From Dictyostelium discoideum (lineage: Eukaryota), in contig CM000152.2 in assembly GCA_000004695.1 (NCBI GenBank), forward strand, positions 6,016,001-6,080,000: 64,000 nucleotides of DNA. The letters are read 5' to 3'. The number at the start of each line of letters is the position of its first letter. The stretch's first letter is position 1. The position numbers were made by a program, and so were the translations under genes. The notes under the pieces were generated by a model, which saw only the letters and a program-made list of their open reading frames with translations, searched no databases and was not told the DNA's origin. Below are positions 20,426 through 21,459 of this stretch, piece after piece.

Positions 20426-20568
20426 TTAAATAATAAAAAAAAAATAATAATAAATAATTAATTTAAAGGATACTAAGTTATCTAATATTTTTTAAAATTA
20501 AGATTTGTTATTTTTTATTAAAGCTGCTATATTTGGGTGTTGTAGGGAAATTTTAGATTTTTTTTTTT

Positions 20569-20636
20569 CCTGGCTGTTGGGAAAAAAGCGCTATTTTTCC
20601 CTACACTGCTTAGTGAAATTTTTCACTACAGCCGGG
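20569..20636. ncRNA. Candidate structured element: an 8-bp outer stem (CCTGGCTG...CAGCCGGG) enclosing two hairpins (GGGAAAAAAGCGCTATTTTTCCC and AGTGAAATTTTTCACT) within a 250-bp GC-enriched island. ncRNA or transposon-end relic; function unknown.
   Basis: Nested inverted repeats read directly. The local GC content is far above the intergenic background (20521-20770). A second palindrome CACCTAAGGTG lies at 20753-20763. Confidence 0.2.
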
Positions 20637-21459
20637 AAAAAAAAAATCTGCTTATTTTCACCGACCAAAAATAAATAAATGTTATTATTTGTTATAGTTA
20701 TTGTTGCAAGCGCTTAAAAAAGCTGAGAAATTTTTCAAATTAGATCCTGAAAAAATCGCAGCACCTAAGGTGAAAAAAAAAAAATTAAAAAATTTTATTT
20801 TAGCTTTTTTTTAATATTTTTTTAAATAAAAACAATCACTTTTTGTTAAATTACAACTTTGTTTTTAAATCAATACTTAATTTATTTATTATTATTATTA
20901 TTTTTTTTTTTTTATTTTTTTTTTATTTTTCTTTTTTATTTTTTTTTTATTTTTTTATTTTAGTTTATTTTAAAAATCTTTTAGTGAAATTATAATTTAT
21001 TTGATCTTTTTTTGTTTTTAATTTTAATAATGCATTTTTGTTTTTAGATTTATTATTGGGGTGGAAAAAATTATAATAATAAATTAAAAAAAAAAAGATC
21101 ATTCAACAAAGGGTTTGTCTCATCGCAAAAAAACTGAAAAAAAATTAAAAAAAAAATGTTTTTGTCATAAACACAAAAAAAAAAATATCTAAATGCTCAA
21201 AATATTTTGATTTTGATTTTTTGGGCAAGAAATTTGTAAAGTTGATTGGATGTAAAAAATTAAGTTTTTTTTTTAAATTTTATTTTTTACTTTCTAAATT
21301 TTAAAAAAAAAAGTTGATCATTATTTTTATTTTTTTTAATTTTTTTTTCATTATTTTTTTCTTTTAAACAGTGCAACTGGTAATACACCTCATATTTTTT
21401 TTTTATTATTTCCAAAATTAAATTTTTTATTTTTTTTTTTTTTTGAGGTAAAATGGAAA

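Follow-up and report, generated by a model that had tools for sequence, protein, structure and literature searches.

The window analysed here is a 64-kb stretch of Dictyostelium discoideum AX4 chromosome 3, and three of its ORFs were found to be exact AX4 proteins, including DDB_G0282641 and a copy of TRE5-A ORF1. A spacer of 1.08 kb within this window separates a small plus-strand gene (19957-20381) from a long ORF on the same strand, which begins at 21460 and which its homologs mark as FNIP-repeat-like. The island that is the subject of this analysis lies in this spacer, 700-900 bp upstream of the ATG of the downstream gene. Orthologous loci were fetched through the neighbouring proteins from the AX4-type assembly GCA_054883475.1 (L005), from two further assemblies labelled D. 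discoideum, GCA_054859355.1 (L003) and GCA_054859385.1 (L004), and from D. citrinum (L006), D. dimigraforme (L001) and D. purpureum (L002).

Downstream of the spacer, the plus-strand ORFs at 21460-26643 (1727 aa) and 26766-28628 (620 aa) probably represent two exons of a single FNIP-repeat gene, the orthologs of which measure 2166-2354 aa in L004 and D. citrinum. At 21770-22120 (plus strand), in the Asn-rich N-terminal portion of the large ORF, a unit of ~108 nt is tandemly repeated with near identity, which yields the repeated peptide NNNKNNGLNDNQQNKENDDFENDQIDS. In the L005 annotation this gene is joined to the upstream small gene, so that the island appears as 'intronic'; the fusion is probably an artefact of annotation. 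In the promoter-proximal region 21033-21433 of the large gene, identity with L003 is 86.6% over 418 nt, and the G/C-containing words TTATTGGGGTGG, CAAAGGGTTTGTC and TTTTTGGGCAAGAAATTTGTAAAGTTGATTGGATG within it are candidate regulatory boxes.

Upstream of the spacer, the small gene at 19957-20381 is an inverted paralog of a minus-strand gene at 19379-19654. Comparison of AX4 with L003 revealed a compensated -2/+2 frameshift in the small gene (tatatac to tatac; gatctcaaa to gatctctcaaa), which in AX4 leads to an in-frame TAG after codon 68, at about 20161-20163. Because of this in-frame TAG, the AX4 copy is probably truncated or a pseudogene. L004 has lost the copy entirely, and D. citrinum lacks it. 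Elsewhere in the window, a minus-strand TRE5-A (ORF2 at 57164-60385, ORF1 at 60598-61932) is located between tRNA-Ile (56152-56224) and tRNA-Val (62780-62854), and the whole arrangement at 56152-62854 has the usual tRNA-targeted layout of this element.

The features of the spacer are as follows, with the strand given where one applies.

20470-20554: 85-bp segment whose orientation in AX4 is opposite to that in the other D. discoideum assemblies; the first 34 nt of the island, AAAGCTGCTATATTTGGGTGTTGTAGGGAAATTTT, belong to it
20550-20565: left copy of a 16-nt direct repeat, ATTTTAGATTTTTTTT, found by a repeat search of the window
20555-20649: 95-nt palindromic unit, AGA-T11-CCTGGCTG ... CAGCCGGG-A10-TCT, with a three-way-junction fold
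20566-20796: block present only in AX4-type sequence, 231 bp between the repeats, 30% G+C, lacking at the orthologous site in L003 and L004
20569-20576, plus strand: 5' arm of the outer stem, CCTGGCTG, forming 8 bp with CAGCCGGG
20579-20601, plus strand: hairpin 1, GGGAAAAAAGCGCTATTTTTCCC, with an 8-bp stem, GGGAAAAA/TTTTTCCC, and a 7-nt loop, AGCGCTA
20612-20627, plus strand: hairpin 2, AGTGAAATTTTTCACT, with a stem of 6-7 bp
20629-20636, plus strand: 3' arm of the outer stem, CAGCCGGG, with one G-U pair that becomes an A-C mismatch on the minus strand
20708-20715: palindrome AAGCGCTT, containing the rare word AAGCGC
20762-20772: palindrome CACCTAAGGTG
20773-20796, plus strand: A-rich end of the block, A12-TT-A6-TTTT, immediately preceding the right repeat copy
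20797-20812: right copy of the 16-nt direct repeat, ATTTTAGCTTTTTTTT, at which homology with L003 and L004 restarts

An earlier, sequence-only reading had singled out 20521-20770 as a GC-enriched island. Enrichment over the surroundings was borne out, with 32.4% G+C in this interval and 45.6% in 20569-20636, compared with 12.3% in the remaining spacer (20382-21459). The level itself is coding-like: 12% of all 250-bp windows attain the G+C content of the island, and its composition is not truly G+C-rich. The palindrome CACCTAAGGTG, which that reading had placed at 20753-20763, was relocated to 20762-20772.

The sequence also agrees with the claim that an 8-bp stem at 20569-20636 encloses two hairpins, and RNAfold applied to 20560-20650 reproduced the three-way junction, with the outer stem lengthened through T9/A9. 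The full inverted repeat of 20555-20649 has arms of 21-22 nt with one mismatch and one indel; the fold is branched, and its longest helix measures ~20 bp. The folding energy of 20560-20650 was calculated to be -36.3 kcal/mol on the plus strand (z = -7.27), and none of 200 dinucleotide shuffles was equally stable; the minus strand gave -33.3 kcal/mol (z -5.8). Such near-equal stability on both strands is expected of a DNA palindrome. When all 6391 windows of 90 nt, on both strands, were scanned across the 64 kb, the palindromic unit ranked top at -35.4 (mean -10.2, sd 4.7), followed by the tRNA-Ile region at -32.7, and the tRNA-Val region was also less stable. Thus, the structure far exceeds chance, and the feature is real and statistically strong.

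The island also contains rare words. There are just two copies of AAGCGC in the whole 64 kb, one at 20708 and one in the hairpin 1 loop, at 20586. GAAATTTTTCA likewise has two copies in the 64 kb (20615 and 20727), so that all copies of both words fall inside the island; the two pairs keep the same order, 112-122 nt apart, a hint of an old internal duplication. An internal duplication of the island in two units was nevertheless rejected, the alignment score being attained by 49 of 1000 shuffles despite the common rare words. The 3' part of the island, 20713-20755 (plus strand), bears a weak resemblance to the beginning of the minus-strand small gene, 19660-19615 (minus strand), with TTAAAAAAGCTGAGAAATTTTTCAAATTAGATCCTGAAAAAA aligned to TTAAAATGACTGAAAAAATTTTAAATAAATTAGATGTAGAAAAAA at p ~0.02, both by shuffling and against background chunks of the window. 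At this p value, the idea that part of the block is the relic of a third copy of the small gene is unsupported.

Is the island conserved? In L005, the block was found to be 100% identical, and identity to the window amounts to 99.7% over 18 kb. L003 and L004 are colinear with the window at ~87.6% identity across 23 kb, and the island spacer is the sole non-colinear stretch in these 23 kb between AX4 and L003. The identity of ~87-88% across 5273-28404, in genes and spacers, reflects a divergence far above that expected within one species, which suggests that L003 and L004 represent deeply diverged or cryptic lineages. The structured block itself has no match in L003, L004 or D. citrinum. At the orthologous site, L003 and L004 have a single repeat-like copy, and the sequence after it can be aligned to AX4 from 20797 on, the restart of homology at about this position being supported by z 3.9 and 0 of 500 shuffles. 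A global alignment carried out after re-inversion of the 85-bp segment contains one AX4-only gap of 243 nt, 20542-20784; the AX4-type-only block, with 231 bp between the repeats, has an extent of about 231-247 bp. The 16-nt repeat that flanks it, written as the pattern ATTTTAG[AC]TTTTTTTT, occurs at two places only in the 64 kb, namely 20550-20565 and 20797-20812, and the two copies are identical at 15 of 16 positions. Two other descriptions of the indel, a 68-bp unit inserted in an ancestral T(n)A(n) palindrome and a tandem duplication of the spacer, were marginal (z 1.3-3.2) and weaker than the whole-block alignment with its 243-nt gap.

The left boundary of the block coincides with a second rearrangement. 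AX4 20470-20554 corresponds to the reverse complement of L003 15303-15387 and L004 15155-15238, with 70 of 88 identities; the inverted orientation reached a score of 82, compared with 27 on average in shuffles (sd 4.4), whereas the direct orientation scored 19, no better than the null. The breakpoint of this 85-bp inversion, 20554/20555, is the start of the structured block. In L003, the invertible segment is bounded by a 12-nt inverted repeat, AAAATTTATAAA/TTTATAAATTTT, at 15303-15314 and 15391-15402, which could have mediated the inversion. An inverted duplication of the 85-bp segment was also considered and was not significant in shuffles.

Outside D. discoideum, neither the block nor its flanks could be aligned to a homolog in the syntenic spacers of D. 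citrinum and D. dimigraforme, and at the D. purpureum locus blastn detected no copy of the block. These outgroups are too diverged to align, and they therefore cannot tell gain from loss. The conservation in other dictyostelids by which the sequence-only reading was to be judged is thus lacking: the block is missing at the two other D. discoideum sites, and no homolog was found in the three other species.

A second copy of the block was sought by blastn, by 12-mer matching and with a covariance model of the 95-nt unit, in 31 loci (~0.66 Mb) and the 64-kb window, ~0.72 Mb altogether, of which ~0.5 Mb is AX4-type, roughly 1.5% of the genome; this AX4-type part includes many TRE5-A and other RT-encoding elements. 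None was found by any of the three methods, and all that these searches returned were T-run/A-run look-alikes. A high-copy family is ruled out by this result, and families of fewer than roughly 200 copies are compatible with the sample. The search for additional copies that had been proposed returned a single copy in ~0.72 Mb, which is flanked by a 16-nt repeat resembling a target-site duplication (TSD). No match was obtained between the block DNA and TRE5-A or other RT-bearing elements in L007-L031, by tblastx of the block against all loci, or with a chimeric six-frame peptide query of the block among 5.8 billion proteins at E <= 10; a 57-aa ORF is not on record according to an exact look-up. 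Metagenome, prokaryotic genome and viral contig collections gave 0 matches to exact or structured patterns, plasmids gave no blastn match, phages gave one 25-nt A/T chance match, and a full-text literature search for the stem sequences returned nothing. The element thug-S turned out to be an intron-bearing DNA transposon rather than a small hairpin element.

The nested stems had been described as tRNA-like. The unit does share with tRNA an acceptor-like closing stem, internal hairpins, one 7-nt loop and a loose A-box-like word, GCTTAGTG, at 20608, but it has two hairpins instead of three arms, and the B box (GGTTCGANNCC or GTTCRA) is absent from both strands of the island. ARAGORN detected tRNAs at 56152 and 62780 only, and none within 35 kb of the block. 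At gathering scores, Rfam models run over the whole window recovered just the two tRNAs and nothing at the island; at E <= 10, 20300-21000 gave far sub-threshold chance matches only, including snoRNA, and none to RF00005. With these negative tRNA models and no B box, the unit does not qualify as a tRNA or tRNA-derived element.

Other classes of small RNA were compared with the unit in the same manner. Dictyostelid Class I RNAs are 42-65 nt long with a 6-bp terminal stem and an 11-nt motif adjoining the 5' stem, start with G, end with CUGU, and have a DUSE ~60 nt upstream, or a DUSE and a TGTG box (PMC7919456). The unit differs in being 68 nt long (95 nt with extensions), in having a stem of 8-22 bp, in starting with CC and in not being conserved; the conservation across Dictyostelia that is typical of Class I is not seen, the unit being missing in L003, L004, D. 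citrinum, D. dimigraforme and D. purpureum. The DUSE CCCA[ACT]AA and the word AAATGTG are absent from both strands of 20500-20820, the nearest DUSE-like words being at 20332 and 21219 on the minus strand, and the best matches to the 11-nt motif have 3-4 mismatches, none of these matches adjoining the 5' stem. Unlike a miRNA precursor, the unit is a branched junction and not a long unbranched hairpin. None of the stem sequences is present among the miRNA loci in the supplement of PMC6161686, whose chromosome 3 loci lie at 3.66 and 3.74 Mb; the island lies at ~6.1 Mb of the 6.43-Mb L005 chromosome. Features of snoRNAs were not found either: C/D boxes are missing, with no TGATGA on either strand, the hairpin stems of 6-8 bp are without pockets, and the ATGA core of SECIS does not occur in the island. 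For the proposal of a structured ncRNA, then, the stable fold stands, and conservation and matches to Rfam, tRNA, miRNA or Class I are all wanting. Such results argue against both a conserved ncRNA and a conserved regulatory module.

How, then, did the block come to be in AX4? The reading that we prefer, to which we give about an even chance, is that the block is a young insertion or rearrangement product specific to the AX4 lineage, and that its fold is a DNA palindrome without conserved function. The most likely origin is a single insertion of mobile, retro-copied or break-repair-captured DNA, which would have entered the rapidly evolving A/T spacer beside the 85-bp inversion, with a plus-strand gene on either side; the 16-nt repeat, as a target-site-like duplication, and the A-rich end would be its traces. 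The insert would have brought the nested inverted repeats with it, and the T-run of the target, once duplicated, would by chance extend the outer stem. A content of 30% G+C within a 12% G+C spacer of an extremely A/T-rich genome points to recent arrival, and the absence of any trace in the three other species points to a young insertion. The polarity of the event (insertion here as opposed to deletion in the other lineage), the type of source and the lack of function are matters that we infer.

The block can be compared with several types of known element. With non-LTR retrotransposition or a processed retrocopy it shares the 16-nt repeat, the A12TTA6 stretch before the downstream copy and an empty site with one copy; the combination of a variable-length TSD and a 3' A-tail that marks retro-insertions is represented by the 16-nt repeat and A12TTA6TTTT. 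This A-rich 'tail' constitutes weak evidence, A-runs being common in the genome. The block differs from such insertions in that no parent RNA or element was found in the loci searched and in that its orientation is ambiguous, with A/T runs at both ends. Known D. discoideum non-LTR elements (TRE) insert beside tRNA genes, and in contrast to these the block has no tRNA gene nearby. A MITE or foldback element would likewise be compact and non-coding and, like the block with its 21-22-nt arms, stable on both strands and situated in A/T-rich DNA; the 20555-20649 inverted repeat, however, is confined to the left portion of the block instead of delimiting it, and the two block ends are not inverted copies of one another. 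Like MITEs and DNA transposons, the block is flanked by a TSD-like repeat, the 16 nt of which exceed the usual TSDs of DNA transposons. The idea of mobile or inserted DNA is partly supported by a lineage-specific indel, a 16-nt direct repeat and an A-rich end; for the terminal repeat of a transposon in particular, neither other copies in the ~0.72 Mb nor a transposase context was found. That the unit is a very young, lineage-specific structured RNA gene, or the first copy seen of an undescribed low-copy non-autonomous mobile element whose three-way-junction end would be recognised by its mobilising enzyme, is improbable; if true, such a gene or element would have been caught soon after its arrival in the AX4/NC4 lineage.

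The main rival to insertion is deletion in the other lineage, which leaves the same pattern, a repeat-flanked indel being equally the signature of repeat-mediated deletion. The block would here be ancestral, slippage or recombination between the 16-nt direct repeats would have removed it from the L003/L004 lineage, and the AX4 copy could be an older element, functional or decaying. The spacer is a hot spot, with an 85-bp inversion and a small gene lost in L004 and absent in D. citrinum, which agrees with loss, and the coding-like G+C content could reflect constraint. Nevertheless, no trace of the block was found in D. citrinum, D. dimigraforme or D. purpureum, and a block that is old and unconstrained would be expected to have drifted towards the spacer's 12% G+C; loss is regarded as unlikely. 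Formation of the palindromes at the site itself, through template switching during replication or through fold-back repair, in the same type of event that inverted the adjacent 85 bp, would account for the block beginning exactly at the inversion breakpoint 20554/20555 and for the inverted repeat AAAATTTATAAA/TTTATAAATTTT flanking the L003 segment. It would also fit the inverted recurrence of TGTAGGGAAA (20541) at 20596 and the words TACAGCC and TGGCTGT common to the island and the neighbouring L003 segment. Alignments with the neighbouring segment were insignificant, though, their scores being attained by 26, 6, 17 and 64 of 300 shuffles, and most of the ~210 nt of G/C-containing sequence has no detectable local template in either orientation. 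Since template switching copies existing sequence and creates none, it cannot explain the source of these ~210 nt, and we give this route a low probability.

Two further alternatives assign a function to the island, and the stability of the fold is the one piece of positive evidence that they have. As a newborn, lineage-specific small structured ncRNA, the unit would be transcribed from a start after T11, with the TATA-like TATATTT ~35 nt upstream, into a three-way-junction RNA. This would be in keeping with a local fold that surpasses all others in the 64 kb in stability, the two tRNA genes included, and selection acting on a transcript could be the reason for such exceptional stability; through one G-U pair, the plus strand is favoured by 3 kcal/mol. 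T-rich stretches precede mapped pri-miRNA start sites in D. discoideum, and the T-run upstream of the unit resembles them (PMC6161686). The unit is, however, unconserved even within the species and lies outside the miRNA loci of that study's supplement. Rfam gives no match to it, neither strand has a DUSE within 150 nt, and the TGTG box and the 11-nt Class I motif are likewise missing; an ncRNA of this kind is very improbable. The unit also has internal T5 runs in both hairpins, and T5 runs would stop RNA polymerase III. As a palindromic protein-binding cluster (AGCGCT/AAGCGCTT, CACCTAAGGTG and the G-rich GGGTGTTGTAGGG), the island would be an AX4-specific enhancer or insulator of the FNIP-repeat gene. 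G/C-containing boxes in A/T spacers are typical Dictyostelium regulatory elements, and AAGCGC and GAAATTTTTCA, each present twice in the 64 kb, are confined to the island in the same order. The conserved part of the spacer is 21033-21433 and not the island, which stands 700-900 bp from the ATG and is missing in isolates that keep the FNIP-repeat gene, and this role is considered the most doubtful of those discussed here.

Overall, we consider the element most likely to be a lineage-specific structural variant, ordinary in kind although neatly palindromic. If the insertion reading is right, its biological importance is small, and its value is practical: in an extremely A/T-rich genome, a stable G/C-containing island mimics an RNA gene, and comparison between isolates reveals it to be a structural variant of a strain lineage. 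The spacer is a local rearrangement hot spot, in which an inversion, an indel and the gain or loss of the neighbouring small gene are found together, and such a rearrangement-prone spacer is relevant wherever AX4 serves as the reference for natural isolates. If the unit is transcribed, it would be a rare case of a structured RNA or mobile element whose origin can be dated inside a single species.
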